A model generated the notes under the pieces. The model was not told the DNA's origin. It did no database searches and saw only the letters and a program-made list of their open reading frames with translations. A stretch of 35,093 bases of DNA, taken from the IMG/VR virus record IMGVR_UViG_2529293015_000001; one strand, given 5' to 3'. Below, piece by piece: positions 76-34,816 of this stretch. How positions within the stretch are numbered: the stretch's first letter is position 1; every line of letters begins with the position of its first letter. Source of the DNA: a virus (Duplodnaviria > Heunggongvirae > Uroviricota > Caudoviricetes). Made by a program: the position numbers and the translations under genes.

Positions 76-2163
76 ATGTCTGTGGAATTTACTGCGGATA
101 GCAATAGTGCTCGACAGCGTGAAACGGTAACTGCTCCGTCATTAGGCGCGGTAGAGGAAATCTCTGCTGGTGTATATCGCTCTGTTCTGGCTGCTGGTTC
201 GCAGGCTGGGACGGTACGTGTAACTGCAAAAGTTCAGGGAAAAACATTTACTCTCAGTATTAAGCAAACAGCAGCAACAGAACCTGATTCTGAGGTCAGT
301 GCTGCTTTAACCGCTGCACCAGCAGAACAGGTAGTTGGTTACAATATCAATCTACAACTGGCAGTGAAGGATTCACAAGGAAATGCAATCACTGGTGATA
401 ACACTCTGAGCTTTTATGCTCTTAACCAGGCAGAAGGAGTCGAGTTTGGGACTGTAACGGAAAAAGACGGTGTCTATAGCGCGACAGTAACTTCAAAACG
501 AGCTGGTAAGATTACTATCGGTGTTAAATCTGATAGTCATGATTTCTCAGGTGTTAAGAAAGAAATCACCTTTATTGAGGACCGGCAGCAGGTTACATTC
601 TCTCAGTTTGAAGCCAGCCAAAATAATGCATTGGCTGATGGAATACAGAGAAATATGGTAACTGTAAGCCTTGCGGACCGTTTCGGCAATGTTGTTCCTG
701 GTTATGCTGTTACGTTGTCCTTACCTGCGGGGGTAACTCAAGTTGGTGGTGAACATGCAGTGTCAACTGACGAAAACGGAAATGCTGTTTTTGCATTAAT
801 AAGCTCCACTCCAGGTTCTTACGTGATTAAAGCTCACGCTGGGCCTCAGGTATCTACTGAGTTAACTGTAACCTTTGCATCAAATATGAGCGGAGCTTCA
901 CTGTCACTGATGCCTGAAAACAGTAGCTTAATTTCGAATATTCCTGCTAATGGTAAAGATGCTGCGGTATTGAATGTTCAGCTAACAAATAATACTAATG
1001 CGTCGGTTAATGGACAGAAGGTTCAGCTCATCACCTCATCTGAAGGGTTGTCTGTGCCGACAAATATCGTGACTGATTCAACAGGACATGTTTCTGTACC
1101 AGTTACAACGGTTAGAGCTGGTGAGTACACGGTAACTGCACGGGTGACTGATGGTTCTAATAGTGTGGAATCTGGAAGCGTTAAGTTAACTTTTGTGCCA
1201 GATATTGCTTCCGCAGAACTCACTATGAGTGTATCAAAACAGCAGATTGTGGCCGATAGCAGTGAAAGTGCAACAGTAGACATTCAGTTGGTTGACGCCA
1301 ATAACAATACGTTTACCGGTGATGTAAATTTAACGATCACCCCATCGACGGGAGCATCATTGACCAGCAGTAAACTGCAGCTGGATGCTTATGGAAAGGC
1401 ATCAACGCAGTTCACTGCATCGAAATCGGGCCAGTACACAATTCAGGCCGAGCATGTTCAGGATGGGAAACGCATAACGGCGAGCCAAAATATTGATGCC
1501 GTGACGGATGTGAAGGAGGCTGTGTTGGAGATCGCATCATCTGTATCTTCTGCTGTTGTGAGCGATTCCAACAATCTTACATTTACGTTGCATCTGAAAA
1601 ATACGTCAGGCGAAGCATTAAGTGGTCGAGCACTGAATATTAAGACTTCTGGACCGTCCAAATATGGTGCTTTGGTGGTTGATAAAACCACAGTAACGAC
1701 TGATGAGCGCGGCCAGGCTACGGTAAGCGTACATGGTCGAACGGCTGGTTCGTATAAATTAACGGCGACCTTAAACGAACTTGGTAGTGATGTTAGCGCG
1801 GTGAAATCATTCTCCCTGTACGCTGATGAAGCAAATGGGGTTCTGAGTCTTGAAAAAGACTATGGTTATGAGGTTAATGACGGCTCTCCAACAGGTATTT
1901 ATGCTCGATTTGTCGATCATTTTGGAAACCCATTATCTGGTACGGTTGAGTTTTCTGCTGGTAGTGAAGATAGTCCAGACTCTCAACACGTCAAAATGGA
2001 ACCTGCTACAGTAACGTTAAGCTCGACAGGTTACGCTGCCTCTGAGTTCAGCACCTATGAAAGTGGTTATCACTGGATTAAGGCCAAAATAACGAATAGC
2101 AAAAATACATATGAGAAAACAATAAGGACTTATGTTGTAAAACTACCTGAAAAGGATAGTTAA
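76..2163 (+). CDS. Ig-like (Big_1-type) repeat adhesin of the invasin/intimin passenger kind; no signal peptide or beta-barrel visible, so probably a 3' fragment or frameshifted gene
   Basis: 695-aa ORF made of about seven tandem ~95-aa T/S/V/G-rich repeats typical of bacterial Ig-like domains; in-frame stops at 13-21 just upstream; no convincing SD before ATG 76; GC lower than phage core. Confidence 0.5.
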   Translation: MSVEFTADSNSARQRETVTAPSLGAVEEISAGVYRSVLAAGSQAGTVRVTAKVQGKTFTLSIKQTAATEPDSEVSAALTAAPAEQVVGYNINLQLAVKDSQGNAITGDNTLSFYALNQAEGVEFGTVTEKDGVYSATVTSKRAGKITIGVKSDSHDFSGVKKEITFIEDRQQVTFSQFEASQNNALADGIQRNMVTVSLADRFGNVVPGYAVTLSLPAGVTQVGGEHAVSTDENGNAVFALISSTPGSYVIKAHAGPQVSTELTVTFASNMSGASLSLMPENSSLISNIPANGKDAAVLNVQLTNNTNASVNGQKVQLITSSEGLSVPTNIVTDSTGHVSVPVTTVRAGEYTVTARVTDGSNSVESGSVKLTFVPDIASAELTMSVSKQQIVADSSESATVDIQLVDANNNTFTGDVNLTITPSTGASLTSSKLQLDAYGKASTQFTASKSGQYTIQAEHVQDGKRITASQNIDAVTDVKEAVLEIASSVSSAVVSDSNNLTFTLHLKNTSGEALSGRALNIKTSGPSKYGALVVDKTTVTTDERGQATVSVHGRTAGSYKLTATLNELGSDVSAVKSFSLYADEANGVLSLEKDYGYEVNDGSPTGIYARFVDHFGNPLSGTVEFSAGSEDSPDSQHVKMEPATVTLSSTGYAASEFSTYESGYHWIKAKITNSKNTYEKTIRTYVVKLPEKDS

Positions 2164-2175
2164 CAAAATTGAATG

Positions 2176-2201
2176 GGGAGGGCTTAGCCCTCCCTCTTTT
2201 T
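2176..2201. terminator. Bidirectional intrinsic terminator between convergent genes
   Basis: Perfect 8-bp GC-rich stem GGGAGGGC/GCCCTCCC (2176-2183, 2187-2194), loop TTA, then TCTTTTT; A/T run on the other side as well. Confidence 0.7.
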
Positions 2202-3243
2202 ACAGGTTAGCGTTTGGGTTTTGTTGTTGGGGAGCTGTTTTTATAGGCGCTCCCAGGTTTTTAGTAAACCACTCAACGACTCTGTTTATAATAATTGGCT
2301 GATACCATGTCTTATCGCCATGCTCGGCCCCTTCTACCAGAACGTACTCAGCGTTATCGCTGTTCTTCTTCAACATCCTGAATAGTTTGGCGCTTTGCTC
2401 CGGTGAAACCAGAGTGTCTTTGCTACCATGCATAATAAGAAATGGAGGTTTTACTCCTTTCATATGTCCGATTGGACTGGCGTTTAGCGCTTTTTCTTTT
2501 GACGCTGTGATGGGGGCTCCCGCAAAATTTCTGAATGCAGGGCCATTGATCATTAAGGCTTCGGTTACGGCAGGAGAGCGATGAACCTCCTGAACTGATT
2601 CAGGGAACCCCTCGCCAATATTCAACAAGTCAGAAATTCCATAAAGTGTGGCAACTGCCTGAACATCTGAGGATTGCTGAAGAAAGTCACCTTTATCAAA
2701 GGTTTTGTCACCATTTGTAGTTCCCATCATCTGGGCAAGCCATCCACCGGCAGAGTCACCCAGAACTCCGATTCTTTGAGGATCAATCCCATAATCGCTG
2801 GCATGCTCTCTCAGGTAACGTATTGCAGCTTTTCCATCCTCAACTGGTGCTGGAAATGTATCAGGAATTGTTCGGTATTCTACAGCGGCCACAACAAAAC
2901 CAGCTTCTGCCAGAGCCATTCTCATTTCAATAAATTTGTCATGTTCAGAAGACATGAATCCGCCGCCGGGATAATAAATAATGGCTGGTTTTAAATCATT
3001 TGTTCGCGGGACAAGAACTGACATGTGAAGCTGTCTGACAGAACGAGTTCCTTTTATCTGGGAGTAAACAACATCACCAATGAGATCGACCTGGTTTCTG
3101 GTCGGTGAAACACTAATGATATCTGCGCCCGGGGTGTAACCAGGAAGATTAGTCTGGACAGGTGTTGCACAACTCCCGACCGACATGGCCATTGACATAC
3201 CATACAATAGTGTTGCAGATGATAATATCTTGTTAATTTTCAT
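2200..3243 (-). CDS. Lipoprotein alpha/beta-hydrolase, hormone-sensitive-lipase-type esterase/lipase
   Basis: 347 aa; N-terminal signal with lipobox-like VGSC; HGG-like oxyanion motif YYPGGGF; nucleophile elbow GDSAG; later Asp and His consistent with a catalytic triad. Confidence 0.65.
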   Translation of the reverse strand: MKINKILSSATLLYGMSMAMSVGSCATPVQTNLPGYTPGADIISVSPTRNQVDLIGDVVYSQIKGTRSVRQLHMSVLVPRTNDLKPAIIYYPGGGFMSSEHDKFIEMRMALAEAGFVVAAVEYRTIPDTFPAPVEDGKAAIRYLREHASDYGIDPQRIGVLGDSAGGWLAQMMGTTNGDKTFDKGDFLQQSSDVQAVATLYGISDLLNIGEGFPESVQEVHRSPAVTEALMINGPAFRNFAGAPITASKEKALNASPIGHMKGVKPPFLIMHGSKDTLVSPEQSAKLFRMLKKNSDNAEYVLVEGAEHGDKTWYQPIIINRVVEWFTKNLGAPIKTAPQQQNPNANL

Positions 3244-3690
3244 GTTTTACATGCCTTGACTTATCGGATGAAATTCTCTTACTGAATTTAACGGCAGTTT
3301 AATAGCCGTACAACTCGTGGTAGCCAGGGAAATATCCCAGTCGTGGTTAAGGTTGTACTTGACGGCTATTATTTCAACAATGCTTAAAGTGAGAGCTTAA
3401 GGTTATGCGTATGTTTTACAGCCCGAGTAGATTCTGACCAATAGCTTCTTTGTATAATTCTGTCAGAAATAAATCTTGGCTTGCATGAAGTTTGAGACCT
3501 TATCTTGTTTGATTATGAATAATCAATTCGCCATAATTGTATCACCGGAGCCTGAACAACTCCGGTGACTTCTGCGCTAAACGGGGACGTTTATGCGCAC
3601 ATACAATCCAACCTATCTTCTCCCTTCACAGATGCAGAAATGCACCTGCGATATCTTGCATCCAGCGTTTGATCTCTGCGGAGGTGAAGC

Positions 3691-4146
3691 GTGAACTTCC
3701 CACAAGATGGCATCAAACTGCATCGCGGTAACTTCACCGCTATCGGTCGGCAGATCCAGCCTTATCTGGAGGACGGCAAATGCTTTCGCATGGTGCTTAA
3801 ACCATGGCGCGAGAGACGCAGTCTTTCCCAGAATGCACTCAGCCACATGTGGTACAGCGAAATCAGTGAATACCTCATCAGCAGGGGTAAAACGTTCGCC
3901 ACTCCAGCTTGGGTAAAAGATGCTCTCAAACACACTTATCTCGGTTATGAAACCAAAGAACTGGTTGATGTCGTAACCGGTGAAATCACCACCATTCAGT
4001 CATTACGTCATACCTCCGATCTCGATACCGGAGAGATGTATGTCTTCCTGTGTAAGGTTGAAGCCTGGGCGATGAATATTGGTTGCCACCTGACTATTCC
4101 GCAGAGCTGCGAGTTCCAGCTGCTGCGCGACAAGCAGGAGGCGTAA
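3691..4146 (+). CDS. ybcN: YbcN/NinB-like nin-region protein (DNA base-flipping protein family)
   Basis: 151 aa, GTG start with SD GGAGGTG 4-5 nt upstream; sequence recalled as close to E. coli DLP12 YbcN; first gene of a ybcN-ninE-ybcO-rusA block. Confidence 0.55.
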
Positions 4147-5847: not shown

Positions 5848-5878
5848 CCCCAAGGAGCTACTCCTTGGGGTTTTTATT
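5848..5878 (+). terminator. Strong intrinsic terminator, candidate tR' ending a ~75-nt leader RNA
   Basis: Perfect 10-bp stem CCCCAAGGAG/CTCCTTGGGG with loop CTA followed by TTTTTATTTATT. Confidence 0.6.
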
Positions 5879-18483: not shown

Positions 18484-18875
18484 AACATACTGAACTCCGT
18501 GCAGCCGTACTGGATGCACTGGAGAAGCATGACACCGGGGCGACGTTTTTTGATGGTCGCCCCGCTGTTTTTGATGAGGCGGATTTTCCGGCAGTTGCCG
18601 TTTATCTCACCGGCGCTGAATACACGGGCGAAGAGCTGGACAGCGATACCTGGCAGGCGGAGCTGCATATCGAAGTTTTCCTGCCTGCTCAGGTGCCGGA
18701 TTCAGAGCTGGATGCGTGGATGGAGTCCCGGATTTATCCGGTGATGAGCGATATCCCGGCACTGTCAGATTTGATCACCAGTATGGTGGCCAGCGGCTAT
18801 GACTACCGGCGCGACGATGATGCGGGCCTGTGGAGTTCAGCCGATCTGACTTATGTCATTACCTATGAAATGTGA
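18480..18875 (+). CDS. U: Tail terminator protein U
   Basis: 131 aa; ATGA overlap with Z. Confidence 0.85.
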
Positions 18876-24043: not shown

Positions 24044-24192
24044 ATCCCATGACAGAGACAGAATCAGCGATTCTGGCGCACGCCCGGCGATGTGCGCCAG
24101 CGGAGTCGTGCGGCTTCGTGGTAAGCACGCCGGAGGGGGAAAGATATTTCCCCTGCGTGAATATCTCCGGTGAGCCGGAGGCGTATTTCCGT

Positions 24193-25421: not shown

Positions 25422-28400
25422 ATGGGTAAAGGCAGCAGTAAGGGGCATACCCCGCGCGAAGCGAAGGATAACCTGAAATCCACGCAGCTGCTGAGTGTGA
25501 TCGATGCCATCAGCGAAGGGCCGATTGAAGGTCCGGTGGATGGATTAAAAAGCGTGCTGCTGAACAGTACACCGGTGCTGGACAGTGAGGGGAATACCAA
25601 CATCTCCGGTGTCACGGTGGTGTTCCGGGCAGGTGAGCAGGAGCAGACACCGCCGGAGGGATTTGAATCCTCCGGTTCCGAGACGGTGCTGGGTACGGAA
25701 GTGAAATACGAAACGCCGATCACCCGGACCATCACGTCTGCAAACATCGACCGTCTGCGCTTTACCTTCGGTGTGCAGGCACTGGTGGAAACCACCTCAA
25801 AGGGTGACCGGAATCCGTCGGAAGTCCGCCTGCTGGTTCAGATACAACGTAACGGTGGCTGGGTGACAGAAAAAGACATCACCATTAAGGGCAAAACCAC
25901 GTCGCAGTATCTGGCCTCGGTGGTGGTGGATAACCTGCCGCCGCGACCGTTCAATATCCGGATGCGCAGGATGACACCGGACAGCACCACAGACCAGCTG
26001 CAGAACAAAACGCTCTGGTCGTCATACACCGAAATCATCGATGTGAAACAGTGCTACCCGAACACGGCACTGGTCGGCGTGCAGGTGGATTCGGAGCAGT
26101 TCGGCAGCCAGCAGGTGAGCCGTAATTATCATCTTCGCGGGCGCATTCTGCAGGTGCCGTCGAACTATAACCCGCAGACGCGGCAATACAGCGGTATCTG
26201 GGACGGGACGTTTAAACCGGCATACAGCAACAACATGGCCTGGTGTCTGTGGGATATGCTGACCCATCCGCGCTACGGCATGGGGAAGCGTCTCGGTGCG
26301 GCGGATGTGGACAAATGGGCGCTGTATGTCATCGGCCAGAATTGCGACCAGTCGGTGCCGGATGGCTTTGGTGGCACGGAGCCGCGCATCACCTGTAACG
26401 CTTACCTGACCACGCAGCGCAAGGCGTGGGATGTGCTCAGTGATTTCTGCTCGGCGATGCGCTGTATGCCGGTATGGAACGGGCAGACGCTGACGTTCGT
26501 GCAGGACCGACCGTCGGATAAGGTGTGGACCTATAACCGCAGTAATGTGGTGATGCCGGATGATGGCGCGCCGTTCCGCTACAGCTTCAGCGCCCTGAAG
26601 GACCGCCATAATGCCGTTGAGGTGAACTGGATTGACCCGAATAACGGCTGGGAGACGGCGACAGAGCTTGTTGAAGATACGCAGGCCATTCTCCGTTACG
26701 GTCGTAACGTCACGAAGATGGATGCCTTTGGCTGTACCAGCCGGGGGCAAGCACACCGCGCCGGGCTGTGGCTGATTAAAACGGAGCTGCTGGAAACGCA
26801 GACCGTGGACTTCAGCGTGGGTGCAGAAGGGCTTCGCCATGTACCGGGCGATGTCATTGAAATCTGTGATGATGACTATGCGGGTATCAGCATCGGCGGG
26901 CGCGTGCTGGCGGTGAACAGCCAGACGCGGACACTGACGCTCGACCGTGAAATCACGCTGCCATCCTCCGGCACCACGCTGATAAGCCTGGTTGACGGAC
27001 AGGGGAATCCGGTCAGCGTGGAGGTCCAGTCCGTCACCGACGGCGTGAAGGTGAAAGTGAGCCGGGTTCCTGACGGCGTTGCCGAGTACAGCGTGTGGGG
27101 GCTGAAGCTGCCGACGCTGCGCCAGCGCCTGTTCCGCTGTGTGAGTATCCGTGAGAACGATGACGGCACGTATGCCATCACTGCCGTGCAGCATGTGCCG
27201 GAGAAAGAAGCCATCGTGGATAACGGGGCGCACTTTGACGGCGACCAGAGCGGAACGGTGAATGGCGTTACTCCGCCAGCAGTGCAGCACCTGACCGCAG
27301 AAGTCACCGCAGACAGCGGGGAATACCAGGTGCTGGCGCGCTGGGATACGCCGAAGGTGGTGAAGGGGGTGAGCTTTATGCTTCGCCTGACCGTGGCAGC
27401 GGATGACGGCAGTGAGCGGCTGGTCAGCACGGCCCGGACGACGGAAACCACATACCGCTTCAGGCAACTGGCGCTGGGGCGTTACACGCTGACGGTCCGG
27501 GCGGTAAATGCGTGGGGACAGCAGGGCGATCCGGCATCGGTATCGTTCCGGATTGCCGCACCGGCAGCGCCGTCGCGGATTGAGCTGACGCCGGGCTATT
27601 TTCAGATCACCGCCACGCCGCATCTTGCGGTTTATGATCCGACGGTACAGTTTGAGTTCTGGTTCTCGGAAAAGCGGATTGCGGATATCAGGCAGGTTGA
27701 AGCCAGCGCGCGTTATCTTGGTACGGCGCTGTACTGGATAGCCGCCAGTATCAATATCAAACCGGGCCATGATTATTATTTTTACATTCGCAGTGTGAAC
27801 ACCGTTGGCAAATCGGCATTCGTGGAGGCTGTTGGCCAGCCGAGTGATGATGCATCCGGCTATCTGGATTTTTTCAAAGGCGAGATAGGGAAAACCCATC
27901 TGGCTCAGGAGCTGTGGACGCAGATTGATAACGGTCAGCTTGCGCCTGACCTGGCTGAAATCAGGACGTCCATTACGGATGTCAGCAATGAAGTCACGCA
28001 GACCGTCAATAAGAAACTGGAAGACCAGAGTGCGGCAATTCAGCAGATACAGAAGGTTCAGGTTGATACAAATAATAACCTGAACAGCATGTGGGCTGTG
28101 AAGCTGCAGCAGATGCAGGACGGACGCCTTTATATCGCGGGTATTGGTGCCGGTATTGAGAATACCCCTGACGGCATGCAGAGTCAGGTGCTGCTGGCGG
28201 CGGACAGGATTGCGATGGTTAATCCTGCGAATGGCAACACAAAGCCGATGTTTGTTGGTCAGGGCGATCAGATATTCATGAACGAAGTGTTCCTGAAATA
28301 TCTGACGGCTCCCACCATTACCAGCGGCGGTAATCCTCCGGCATTTTCCCTGACACCGGACGGGCGGCTGACGGCGAAAAATGCCGATATCAGCGGTAAC

Positions 28401-29632: not shown

Positions 29633-32026
29633 ATGGCAGCAGTAAAAATCTCAGGTGTGCTGAAAGATGGTGCGGGAAAACCAATACAGAACTGCACTAT
29701 TCAACTGAAGGCAAAGCGTAACAGCACCACGGTACTGGTGAACACGGTGGCCTCTGAAAATCCGGATGAAGCCGGGCGTTACAGCATGGATGTTGAGTAT
29801 GGCCAGTACAGCGTCATCCTGCTGGTTGAAGGTTTTCCGCCTTCACATGCCGGGACCATTACCGTCTATGAAGGCTCCAGACCAGGTACGCTGAATGATT
29901 TTCTCGGTGCCATGACGGAAGATGATGTCATGCCGGAGGCATTGCGTCGTTTTGAGGAAATGGTGGAAGAAGCGGCACGCAACGCTGAAGCCGCCTCTCA
30001 GAGCGCAGCGGCGGCAAAGAAATCAGAAACTGCAGCGGCATCATCGAAGAACGCGGCGAAAACCTCAGAAACGAATGCAGCTAATAGTGCACAGGCGGCA
30101 GCGGCCTCACAGACTGCATCAGCAAACTCCGCGACAGCAGCCAAAAAATCAGAAACCAACGCGAAAAATAGCGAGACAGCCGCAAAGACGAGCGAAACCA
30201 ACGCAAAGTCCAGCCAGACGGCAGCGAAGACCAGCGAAACGAATGCTAAAGCCAGTGAAACTGCGGCAAAAAACAGCCAGGTTGCAGCAGCCCAAAGCGA
30301 GAGCGCGGCAGCCGGTTCTGCGACTTCAGCAGCTGGATCAGCAACTGCTGCGGCTAACAACCAGAAAGCTGCGAAGACGAGTGAAACTAACGCAAAGTCC
30401 AGCCAGACGGCAGCGAAGACCAGCGAAACGAATGCCAAAGCCAGTGAAACTGCGGCGAAAAGCAGTCAGGATGCAGCAGCTGAAAGCGAGAGTGCCGCAG
30501 CCAGTTCTGCAAGTGCGGCGGCTTCTTCTGCCACTGCATCAGCCAACAGTCAAAAAGCTGCAAAAACCAGTGAAACCAACGCAAAGGCGAGCGAGACTGC
30601 GGCGGATAACTCAGCGAAAGCATCGGCAGCAAGCCAGACGGCAGCTAAAGAAAGCGAAGACGCAGCCAGGGAGTACGCAAGCCAGGCTGCGGAGCCGTAT
30701 AAACAAGTTTTGCAGCCGCTTCCAGATGTGTGGATACCGTTTAACGATTCTATGGATATGATCACCGGATTTGCGCCGGGATATAAAAAAATTACTGTTG
30801 GTGCGGATGTTGTCACTATGCCTAGTGACAAGATTGTTAGTTTTACCCGTGCATCAACCGCTACATATATTAATAAATCTGGTAGGCTTAGTGTCGCTGC
30901 AATTGATGAACCACGATTTGAAAAAAATGGTTTATTGATTGAAGGTCAACGAACTAACTATTTTGTTAAATCTAACACCCCCGCCGAATGGACTAGCACA
31001 AGCAATATTGATAAAAGCAATAATGGCGTTGATGAATTTGGTTTTTCATTTGCAAAAATGAAAACTAAGGAAAATATGACGGGTCAATCATCCGCTCTTA
31101 GTTTGCATACATGCAGCGCATCCCGTGGTGTTGATGTTAGTGGTGATAATAAGTTTTGCACTGTTTCTTGTCGTGTTAAGGCTCCTGATGGCCTCCGTTG
31201 CCGTTTACGCTTTGAAAAATACGACGGATCAGCTTACACCTTTTTGGGTGATGCTTATTTGACCTTCGGTAAAACTTTGACGATCAAAAAAACTGGCGGT
31301 GCTGCTAACCGTATAACGGCAAATGCTATTAAAGACCCGGTTACTGGTTGGGTCTTCTATGAAGCAACGATAGAAGCGGTTGAAGGGGAATCCTTGATTG
31401 GCGCAATGATTCAGTATGCGCCGAAAGAGGGTGGGAAGACAGAAGCTGATGATTATATCTATCTTGCCACACCGCAATTCGAAAATGGTAGTTGTGCGTC
31501 ATCTTTTATTATTACTACAACAGCCCCTTCTACCCGCGCTAGTGATATGGTTAATATTCCTATTACCAATAATTTGGGATCTATTCCGTTGAGTTGCTTA
31601 GTTGAGGTGCATCGCAATTGGAATATTTCTCCTAGCTCTGCTCCTCGAATTGTCCACACAATTGGGGTCGCTTCAAATGACGAGCAAATGATTTTGGCGT
31701 TTAGGAATCCAACAAGTGGTAATGTCGAACCGTTGCCATATTGTCAATTCGGCGTTAAACAATCATACACTCCGGTTGAAGTAAAAACTGGTGGTTTGAT
31801 GGTTGCTGGATTTGTTTGTAAATCCAATTATGAATTTAAATGTGTTGTGAATGGTACATTTGCATCAACTCAAACGACAACATGGAATAATCCGGGCGCA
31901 GCGTCACAGATTAGAATGGGTGGATCGTCTGGTGGCGGAGAGCGGCATCTGTTCGGTCATTTAAGAAATCTCCGTCTTTGGCATAAAGCGTTAACTGATG
32001 CACAAATGGGGGAGTCAGTAGAATGA
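29633..32026 (+). CDS. stf: Side tail fiber Stf: lambda-like N-terminal anchor, Ala/Ser/Thr-rich repeat shaft, foreign lectin-like (LamG/concanavalin-like) distal domain
   Basis: First ~120 aa (MAAVKISGVLKDGAGKPIQNCTIQLKAKRNSTT...) match recalled lambda Stf; low-GC C-terminal half from ~30700; C-terminal ...HLRNLRLWHKALTDAQMGE resembles the end of LamG-type jelly rolls; ATG 29633 with GGAG upstream. Confidence 0.8.
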   Translation: MAAVKISGVLKDGAGKPIQNCTIQLKAKRNSTTVLVNTVASENPDEAGRYSMDVEYGQYSVILLVEGFPPSHAGTITVYEGSRPGTLNDFLGAMTEDDVMPEALRRFEEMVEEAARNAEAASQSAAAAKKSETAAASSKNAAKTSETNAANSAQAAAASQTASANSATAAKKSETNAKNSETAAKTSETNAKSSQTAAKTSETNAKASETAAKNSQVAAAQSESAAAGSATSAAGSATAAANNQKAAKTSETNAKSSQTAAKTSETNAKASETAAKSSQDAAAESESAAASSASAAASSATASANSQKAAKTSETNAKASETAADNSAKASAASQTAAKESEDAAREYASQAAEPYKQVLQPLPDVWIPFNDSMDMITGFAPGYKKITVGADVVTMPSDKIVSFTRASTATYINKSGRLSVAAIDEPRFEKNGLLIEGQRTNYFVKSNTPAEWTSTSNIDKSNNGVDEFGFSFAKMKTKENMTGQSSALSLHTCSASRGVDVSGDNKFCTVSCRVKAPDGLRCRLRFEKYDGSAYTFLGDAYLTFGKTLTIKKTGGAANRITANAIKDPVTGWVFYEATIEAVEGESLIGAMIQYAPKEGGKTEADDYIYLATPQFENGSCASSFIITTTAPSTRASDMVNIPITNNLGSIPLSCLVEVHRNWNISPSSAPRIVHTIGVASNDEQMILAFRNPTSGNVEPLPYCQFGVKQSYTPVEVKTGGLMVAGFVCKSNYEFKCVVNGTFASTQTTTWNNPGAASQIRMGGSSGGGERHLFGHLRNLRLWHKALTDAQMGESVE
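30182..30630 (+). repeat. In-frame tandem repeats of 189 bp (63 aa) in the stf shaft, about 2.4 copies plus degenerate copies upstream
   Basis: Units starting 30182, 30371, 30560 are near-identical (GC[AG]AAGAC[CG]AG[CT]GAAAC...); encode AAKTSETNAKSSQTAAKTSETNAKASETAAK... Confidence 0.85.
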
Positions 32027-34361: not shown

Positions 34362-34739
34362 ATGGATTATGTTTGCTCCGTAGTTTTCATCTGTCAATCA
34401 TTTGATTTAATTATAAACAGGAGAGTTATCTCGTTCAAAAAAAATTCATTGTTTATTGTAAGCGACAAAATTAGAAGAGAGTTACCAGTATGCCCCTCTA
34501 AACTAAGAATTGTTGATATAGATAAGAAAACATGTTTATCCTTTTTTATCGACGTGAATAATGAGTTGCCTGGCAAATTTACTCTTGATAAGAATGGCTA
34601 TATTGCTGAAGAGGAACCTCCATTATCGCTTGTTTTTTCTCTGTTTGAAGGGATTAAAATAGCAGACTCACACTCCCTTTGGTTAAAAGAAAGACTATGT
34701 ACTGATGAATCCCCTAATGATTTTGGTAAAAATCATTAA
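34362..34739 (+). pseudogene. appY: appY-like AraC-family regulator truncated after about codon 113 by IS10; the last 12 codons are read from the IS10 end
   Basis: [30 protein letters not shown]... recalled as the AppY N-terminus (DLP12); homology ends where the IS10 outside end begins (34702); the AraC helix-turn-helix part is missing. Confidence 0.6.
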
Positions 34740-34747
34740 GTTAAGGT

Positions 34748-34816
34748 GGATACACATCTTGTCATATGATCAAATGGTTTCGCGAAAAATCAATAATCAG
34801 ACAACAAGATGTGCGA
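34748..34816 (-). ncRNA. IS10 RNA-OUT antisense RNA (position estimated by offset from the IS10 end)
   Basis: Known IS10 organisation: ~69-nt RNA-OUT from pOUT, complementary to the 5' end of the transposase mRNA; coordinates are the IS10 positions about 47-115 mapped onto the window, not an independent prediction. Confidence 0.4.

Follow-up and report, generated by a model that had tools for sequence, protein, structure and literature searches.

A conserved RNA hairpin at the head of the nin region in lambdoid prophages: a probable 5′-terminal stabilizing stem-loop with a near-invariant loop

What does a perfect hairpin do in the gap that precedes ybcN in a lambdoid prophage? We analyzed a 35,093-nt stretch of DNA, hereafter the window, which carries a prophage almost identical to one in Escherichia coli Z1323HEC0475. 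A sequence-only reading of the window had placed the hairpin in a non-coding gap of about 450 bp and had offered three functions for it: a protein-binding palindrome, an RNA processing or stability element, or a Rho-dependent or nin-type terminator. The gap does measure 447 bp (3244-3690), but it is not wholly non-coding, as the small gene ylcH lies inside it; both this gene and the promoter described below had been overlooked.

The gene order in Z1323HEC0475 is O, P, an inverse-autotransporter gene, an alpha/beta-hydrolase gene on the opposite strand, a 33-codon 'hypothetical protein', ybcN, ninE, ybcO, rusA, a YlcG-family gene, and Q. The 33-codon ORF is ylcH of the K-12 prophage DLP12 and orf33 of phage 82. 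Positions 76-3243 of the window hold a large repetitive ORF, the inverse autotransporter of the near-identical strain, followed by the hydrolase gene (2200-3243, − strand), which is divergent from the leader studied here; the two genes sit between P and the nin region, where K-12 and SE15 have emrE, ybcK, ybcL, and ybcM. The Pfam NinB match of ybcN is weak (E = 2e-4; 21.6 bits, under the 23.8-bit cut-off). At the far side of the window, a full-length Rfam match to RNA-OUT, the IS10 antisense RNA (98.8 bits, 34747-34816, − strand), indicates an IS10 end near the right edge. It is the sole match at the gathering score in the whole window, with no family for the leader, and a search of 3100-3900 at E ≤ 10 likewise gave none for the leader, returning only a chance mir-33 match elsewhere in that stretch.

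The hairpin itself, hairpin 1, consists of TCACCGGAG (3542-3550), the loop CCTGAACAA (3551-3559), and CTCCGGTGA (3560-3568), which reproduces exactly the 9-bp stem and 9-nt loop reported from the sequence alone; all nine pairs are perfect, and the next outward pair, A3541/C3569, is unpaired. It ends 122 nt ahead of the GTG of ybcN at 3691, in keeping with the earlier figure of about 120 bp. Folded as RNA, 3542-3568 has a free energy of −14.4 kcal/mol (z = −5.2 against shuffles). Perfect hairpins of at least 9 bp with loops of 3-12 nt gave 10 raw matches at 8 distinct places in the 35-kb window, compared with about 1.4 ± 1.6 expected by chance per dinucleotide-shuffled window. Because similar hairpins arise by chance in shuffles, the window sequence alone is not decisive for the function of hairpin 1. 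The seven other places are 5848-5870, 18536-18564, 24073-24100, 28056-28085, 30810-30831, 31043-31064, and 34715-34738. A regex-plus-pairing scan found a single copy of the leader in the window. As judged from its relatives, it is comparative evidence, not the single sequence, that sets hairpin 1 above chance. The features of the locus are collected in Table 1.

Table 1. Features of the promoter and leader region (window positions).
Feature	Position	Strand	Basis or remark
−35 hexamer TTGATT	3509-3514	+	Promoter scan; X92588 annotation
Palindrome TTGATTAT-GA-ATAATCAA	3509-3526	.	Over the −35 hexamer and spacer; read directly from the sequence
−10 hexamer CATAAT	3532-3537	+	Promoter scan; X92588 annotation
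Hairpin 1	3542-3568	+	Folds and covariation; 9-bp DNA stem, of which 3544-3566 (7 bp) is transcribed
Transcription start	3544	+	Homology with the mapped K-12 start; 7 nt past the −10 hexamer
9-nt loop CCUGAACAA, near-invariant core UGAACA	3551-3559	+	Invariance over 51 sequences
Hairpin 2	3573-3599	+	Folds; same architecture in at least 8 sequences
ylcH (orf33 of phage 82)	3593-3694	+	33 codons; RefSeq in the near-identical strain and K-12
ybcN (NinB/Orf-like)	3691-4146	+	First large gene served by the leader

A simple promoter scan of 3200-3750 detected only one promoter-like site, the sigma-70 promoter TTGATT-17-CATAAT (3509-3537), and hairpin 1 begins 4 nt past it. The two hexamers are 17 bp apart in 84 of 85 relatives, and the A, T, A, and final T of the −10 hexamer are invariant among 51 sequences. 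The K-12 counterpart has a mapped start: Kim et al. (2012; PMC3415461, supplementary file 2) report one at NC_000913.2 571542 (+) with 247 reads, obtained from mid-exponential cells in M9 glucose by terminator-exonuclease treatment, 5′ RACE, and deep sequencing. They assign it to ylcH with a 5′ UTR of 49 nt, and the neighboring starts, of ybcM and ybcQ, have 2 and 3 reads. Set against the K-12 sequence, the upstream 50-mer in that data set ends ...GGCATAATTATGTCA, which makes the start the A of TCACCGGAG; we carried it to A3544 of the window by the identical stem and the equal distance from the −10 hexamer. Counted along the DNA palindrome, the K-12 start is base three, so that transcription begins within the stem. 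The predicted RNA 5′ end reads ACCGGAG[CCUGAACAA]CUCCGGU, a 7-bp hairpin of −9.9 kcal/mol without an unpaired 5′ nucleotide.

Judged by 571542, then, the stem begins no more than about 2 nt from the primary 5′ end, although this start does not appear in the Cappable-seq list (PMC4782308), which instead has a weak one (relative score 2.86) at 571565. That position (U00096.2) corresponds to G3567 of the window, just past the transcribed stem. By eye, no promoter matching a G3567 start is visible, and none of the sigma-54, sigma-32, sigma-E, or extended −10 readings fits. Terminator exonuclease can be stopped by a structured 5′ end, and a processed end at the hairpin could therefore mimic a primary start. 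The part of Curtis et al. (2014; PMC4118853) that cites earlier rusA work states that adequate expression in K-12 seems to need promoter-supplying insertions; on that account, the output of the native promoter would be limited.

A second palindrome overlies the promoter itself. Its TTGA[TA]-N8-[AT]TCA form (in general, TTGA-N8-TCA) occurs in 82 of 90 distinct leaders and is missing from the most distant ones (L214, L215, and L217), and the element could be an operator. Its half-sites resemble those of FNR, with the wrong spacing (8 rather than 4).

Homology with E. coli genomes and phages starts at window position 3508, one base before the −35 hexamer, and in several relatives a canonical intrinsic terminator, distinct from hairpin 1, directly precedes the −35. 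Promoter, module edge, and upstream terminator thus point to an independent transcription unit that opens the nin region. This arrangement bears on the suggestion that hairpin 1 is an intrinsic or Rho-dependent stop for upstream transcripts, pR-derived or from a moron, that would otherwise enter the nin region. A GC-rich stem at the entrance of that region would suit such a role, but the CTTCTGCGC directly 3′ of the stem (CUUCUGCGC as RNA) is not a T-tract, as had been noted before, and a terminator scan of 3200-3750 found no terminator-like site. The upstream hydrolase gene, moreover, runs the other way, the mapped start puts hairpin 1 at +1 and not at a 3′ end, and the relatives already possess the terminator upstream of the −35. 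We therefore find a terminator scarcely credible.

To compare pairing, we gathered leaders from searches with the YbcN protein in IMG/VR (80 loci) and in one genome per species (19 loci), and with a DNA pattern. Hairpin 1 is present in every protein-found leader that has the module, including those of Enterobacter, Citrobacter, Huaxiibacter, Siccibacter, and Phytobacter; four of the five most distant loci (three Pantoea, one Rosenbergiella) lack the module as a whole. Pairing statistics were taken from an alignment of 51 distinct sequences (A2), which was used in place of a MAFFT alignment of short, loop-anchored segments (A1) whose register was broken by a one-sided gap. In the longer alignment, 95.0% of stem cells pair against a shuffle mean of 86.7%, with none of 500 shuffles reaching the observed value, and 37 cells are compensatory against 9.1 expected; the sequences are related and these shuffle figures are not probabilities, and the pairing figures are slightly conservative because two leaders (L214 and L217) are misaligned in the stem and counted as gaps or mismatches. 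Changes on both sides are found in 9 of the 10 stem pairs, whereas control structures slid by 1-3 columns pair only 18-59%. The compensatory changes across the 51 sequences speak for selected pairing, in agreement with RNAalifold, which yields the same helix unprompted.

In our comparison, the count of unrelated stems is a stronger argument than the shuffle figures. Behind the same promoter, and around nearly the same loop, the stem takes at least 10 unrelated sequences, with examples from phi80, Siccibacter, Phytobacter, and Enterobacter. The commonest allele, TCATCGGAG/CTCCGGTGA, is an imperfect palindrome as DNA yet a perfect helix as RNA, with one U·G pair. Other lineages have TTACTGTCGG/CCGGTGGTGG, ACGTCGACAG/CTGTTGGTGA, TCGCAGTCGG/CCGGTTGCGA, TTGCTGACGG/CCGTCAGTGA, or GGTTGTCAG/CTGACAACC, and phi80 has CTGCCAGCGG/CCCTGGCAG; single compensated doubles are seen in TCATCGGAG/CTCCGATGA and TCACCAGAG/CTCTGGTGA. 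The non-Watson-Crick cells comprise 68 of G·U type and 8 of A·C type (+ strand, n = 51), a bias that neither duplex DNA nor the opposite strand would give, and the helix was therefore selected in the + strand transcript. The stability of the stem ranges from about −3 to −16 kcal/mol among relatives, and the outermost DNA pairs, 3542/3568 and 3543/3567, mostly pair in them, though they are untranscribed from A3544. On these alignments, hairpin 1 is a real, conserved RNA element. A failure of the pairing to be conserved in related prophages had been named in advance as what would refute a function; the pairing is conserved, and that refutation fails.

The same data bear on the protein-binding palindrome, in the form of a double-stranded DNA operator at which a dimeric regulator blocks the promoter at +1. 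A perfect 9-bp palindrome over the transcription start invites this explanation, and the phage 82 record X92588 annotates the repeat as a 'possible regulator-binding site'. However, the half-sites are not conserved: the arms have been replaced wholesale with pairing kept, so that one combination of promoter and loop comes with 10 or more unrelated pairs of arms, and the commonest allele is imperfect as DNA. The asymmetries on the + strand are mostly of the G·T type, in the proportion given above, as expected for RNA and not for duplex DNA. What is conserved, furthermore, is the center, usually the least constrained part of a dimeric operator. Hence we consider an operator improbable.

The remaining proposal, an RNA processing or stability element, gains support from the compensatory and G·U changes and from a mapped K-12 start that puts the hairpin at the 5′ end of the mRNA. 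We assign a probability of about 55% to the reading that hairpin 1 is a 5′-terminal stem-loop that stabilizes the ylcH–ybcN, or nin-region, mRNA. A 5′ hairpin is known to stabilize E. coli mRNA and to impede RppH (reviewed in PMC3997798). In the proposed mechanism, the conserved sigma-70 promoter would start transcription at A3544, inside the stem, and hairpin 1 would form the RNA 5′ end without an unpaired nucleotide. Such a base-paired end would be expected to hinder RppH and 5′-end-dependent attack by RNase E, and hairpin 1 would therefore lengthen the life of the ylcH–nin mRNA in the manner of ompA and papA. Hairpin 2 would present the ylcH ribosome-binding site in its loop and hold the start codon in its stem, and ylcH would be translationally coupled to the first nin-region gene, here ybcN.

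Several points count against a stabilizing stem-loop. A spread of −3 to −16 kcal/mol is wide for a purely protective clamp, and a stabilizer needs no invariant 9-nt loop. The pairing of the two untranscribed outer pairs, the start at 571542 missing from Cappable-seq, and the possibility that the mapped end is a processed, exonuclease-resistant one all weigh on the same side, as does the limited native promoter output suggested by the rusA passage of PMC4118853. In favor of the stabilizing stem-loop is a second context, the leader of a DUF1367 gene, in which a hairpin with the same loop stands at the predicted +1. This shorter relative is found at 3020-3086 of L115 and also in L089, L116, L118, L142, L177, L198, and L202. 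It has an extended −10 (TGATAATAT), the hairpin AACGG/CCGTT with the same loop followed by CTTCTGCGC, and a second hairpin whose loop holds the ribosome-binding site and whose stem holds the AUG; it is without ylcH.

Hairpin 2 follows six nucleotides past hairpin 1. Its loop is GGGA, where the ribosome-binding site GGGGA (3583-3587) is exposed, and the ylcH AUG (3593-3595) lies in its 3′ arm. The arms of hairpin 2 covary, and its architecture recurs in at least eight different sequences, such as UAAACG/CGUUUA, UUUGAG/CUCAAA, AUUUAAG/CUUAAAU, AUAUGAUU/AAUUAUAU, and CGCAAUG/CAUUAUGG; the phi80 annotation calls hairpin 2 IR4. The ATG of ylcH is 24 nt past the end of hairpin 1, and its stop (TGA) overlaps the GTG of ybcN (GTGA). 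Relatives of ylcH have 31-33 codons with a conserved core, and their stop overlaps a start codon (GTGA or ATGA) ahead of several different downstream sequences. From these overlaps, ylcH has the look of a portable leader ORF by which translation is coupled to the following gene.

A further hairpin lies within ylcH at 3627-3650 (TGCAG...CTGCG, or the longer GCAGAAA/UUUCUGC) and is conserved in its nucleotide sequence; an attenuator tied to ylcH translation is one possibility. In one relative (L213, 2446-2463) a T-run comes after it and its score is terminator-like, whereas the tail in the window is ATATCTTG. A K-12 transcriptome study found ylcH RNA 2.03-fold up in microaerobic versus aerobic growth (PMC8910356). 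Three loci (L011, L032, and L140) carry two copies of the leader, about 1.9 kb apart in L032; the other copy runs into a chimeric 53-codon ORF, which suggests gene insertion by recombination within ylcH.

Of 5426 complete E. coli genomes, 2815 carry the promoter with its leader, and prophages from several further enterobacterial genera have it as well. Because the pair is this widespread and homology between otherwise different prophages starts at the −35, it can be regarded as a portable cassette for expressing ybcN/NinB and the further recombination and repair genes downstream in the nin region.

A stabilizing role does not explain the near-invariant loop, which probably has a second, sequence-specific function. 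The T, G, A, and C of the UGAACA core are unchanged in 51 of 51 sequences, most of which have CCUGAACAA as the whole loop, part of this set having come from a pattern that fixes CTGAACA; among the 38 distinct leaders found through the protein search alone, all 38 carry TGA[AG]C[AT]. The final loop base is A or C (C in 12 of the 51). Such conservation suggests an additional, putative partner. The loop complement TTGTTCAGG, allowing up to one mismatch, has 19 matches in the window against 8.2 expected from shuffles, none of them notable as a partner, and RNAduplex comparison of the loop with the 260 nt downstream in seven diverse leaders found no conserved complementary site in the leader or the first gene. 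Some IMG/VR contigs (for instance L095 and L112) match the search pattern a second time on the same strand, 7-8 kb upstream; CTGAACA lies outside a hairpin loop there, and these apparent copies were set aside as chance matches.

One could go further and take hairpin 1 to be mainly a recognition site: the invariant loop, whatever the stem beneath it, would be bound by RNA polymerase, by a protein of phage or host, or by another RNA. In that case the two hairpins of the leader would govern either elongation, through nut- or put-like antitermination from an N-independent promoter, or the translation of ylcH and the nin genes. The UGAACA core does stay invariant while stems are wholly replaced, and the same loop and the following CUUCUGCGC recur with a different promoter, stem, and first gene (DUF1367). 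Against this, the searches for a complementary site and for an Rfam family gave the loop no RNA partner and the leader no match. Reported poor expression of rusA, about 1 kb downstream, in K-12 (in the passage of PMC4118853 cited above) argues against strong processive antitermination. We consider a mainly recognition-based function possible, if rather unlikely; a recognition role as such is compatible with a stabilizing one.

The antitermination sites of lambda and HK022 offer the nearest models for recognition. Hairpin 1 shares with boxB of the lambda nut site its small size, its place close to the start of a lambdoid operon, and a variable stem topped by a conserved loop rich in purines. 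A lambda-type nut site consists of a boxA (CGCUCUUA-like) beside a boxB hairpin with a closed GNRNA pentaloop. In our own reading, the loop could fold as U[GAACA]A into a GNRA-like pentaloop of the boxB kind, and it resembles the GAAAA and GAAGA pentaloops. However, closing a GAACA pentaloop with U-A needs a 2-nt bulge, and 12 of the 51 sequences, which end the loop in C, cannot form that pair. The loop of hairpin 1 is 9 nt rather than 5, no boxA-like sequence is apparent by eye in 3538-3600, and the hairpin begins at the +1 of its own promoter; its loop, unlike that of boxB, is constant over many different prophages and over several genera of host. The near-identical prophage has no annotated N gene in its immunity region.

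The put sites of HK022 act in cis and also form two adjacent stem-loops from a lambdoid transcript start, with putL lying just downstream of an early promoter (PMC9378689). The put RNAs are nevertheless longer, at about 70 nt; their bulged stems are long, they contain a triplex, and they bind the beta′ zinc-binding domain of RNA polymerase and render the enzyme resistant to terminators (PMC9378689). The leader structure, compared by architecture only, spans about 56 nt, and its second hairpin is one of translation initiation, holding the ribosome-binding site and AUG. HK022 itself is without the leader element.

The position of the loop allows one more explanation, namely that the conserved center is a DNA-level signal for promoter escape or sigma-dependent pausing and that the flanking complementarity is secondary. 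The loop spans +8 to +16, where sigma-dependent pause elements can act, and putL has a −10-like element at +23 to +28 (PMC9378689). TGAACA, however, is without the key A2 and T6 of a −10-like element, and a signal of this kind leaves the compensatory changes in the stem unexplained. We give it very little credence.

Taken as a whole, hairpin 1, its CCUGAACAA loop, CUUCUGCGC, and hairpin 2 may tentatively be proposed as a hitherto undescribed cis-regulatory RNA family (the 'nin leader') read by a dedicated, putative partner, an idea that we hold to be speculative and unlikely. If it were true, the family would mark where the nin region begins in many lambdoid prophages of enterobacteria, and its partner, whether a phage or host protein, RNA polymerase, or an RNA, would set the N-independent expression of recombination genes, possibly also of Q, from a promoter active in lysogens. 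If hairpin 1 is only a stabilizer, it is a clean yet unsurprising case of a known principle. It provides a defined, easily mutated element for studying the expression of cryptic prophage genes in lysogens, and the invariant loop is a concrete lead to a putative RNA-binding partner.

The element is already on record as DNA. Positions 82-110 of phage 82 X92588 correspond to window positions 3541-3569, with the same promoter and the same orf33 (ylcH); the record annotates a putative −35, a putative −10, the repeat, orf33, and orf151. It treats the repeat as a DNA regulator site, whereas the comparative data favor a + strand RNA helix, and action of the palindrome as RNA would correct that annotation. 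The searchable full-text literature on ylcH, ybcN, and nin-region promoters holds no description of the leader. What is known, then, is the feature as a DNA repeat in X92588; its RNA nature, covariation, distribution, and place in a two-hairpin leader are new relative to the searchable papers.

Two further known systems resemble parts of this leader. The replicase operator of MS2/R17 resembles hairpin 2 in that the AUG lies in the 3′ arm and the ribosome-binding site in the loop. For hairpin 1, the likeness is to the ompA, papA, and engineered bla stem-loops (Emory, Bouvet and Belasco 1992, reviewed in PMC3997798), which also start at the 5′ triphosphate or one or two bases from it. As in ompA and papA, there is no single-stranded 5′ tail, pairing rather than stem sequence is conserved, and the stem-loop stands upstream of the ribosome-binding site. 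Hairpin 1 differs from them in its near-invariant 9-nt loop, in the start-codon hairpin that always follows, and in belonging to a mobile phage module rather than to a host gene.
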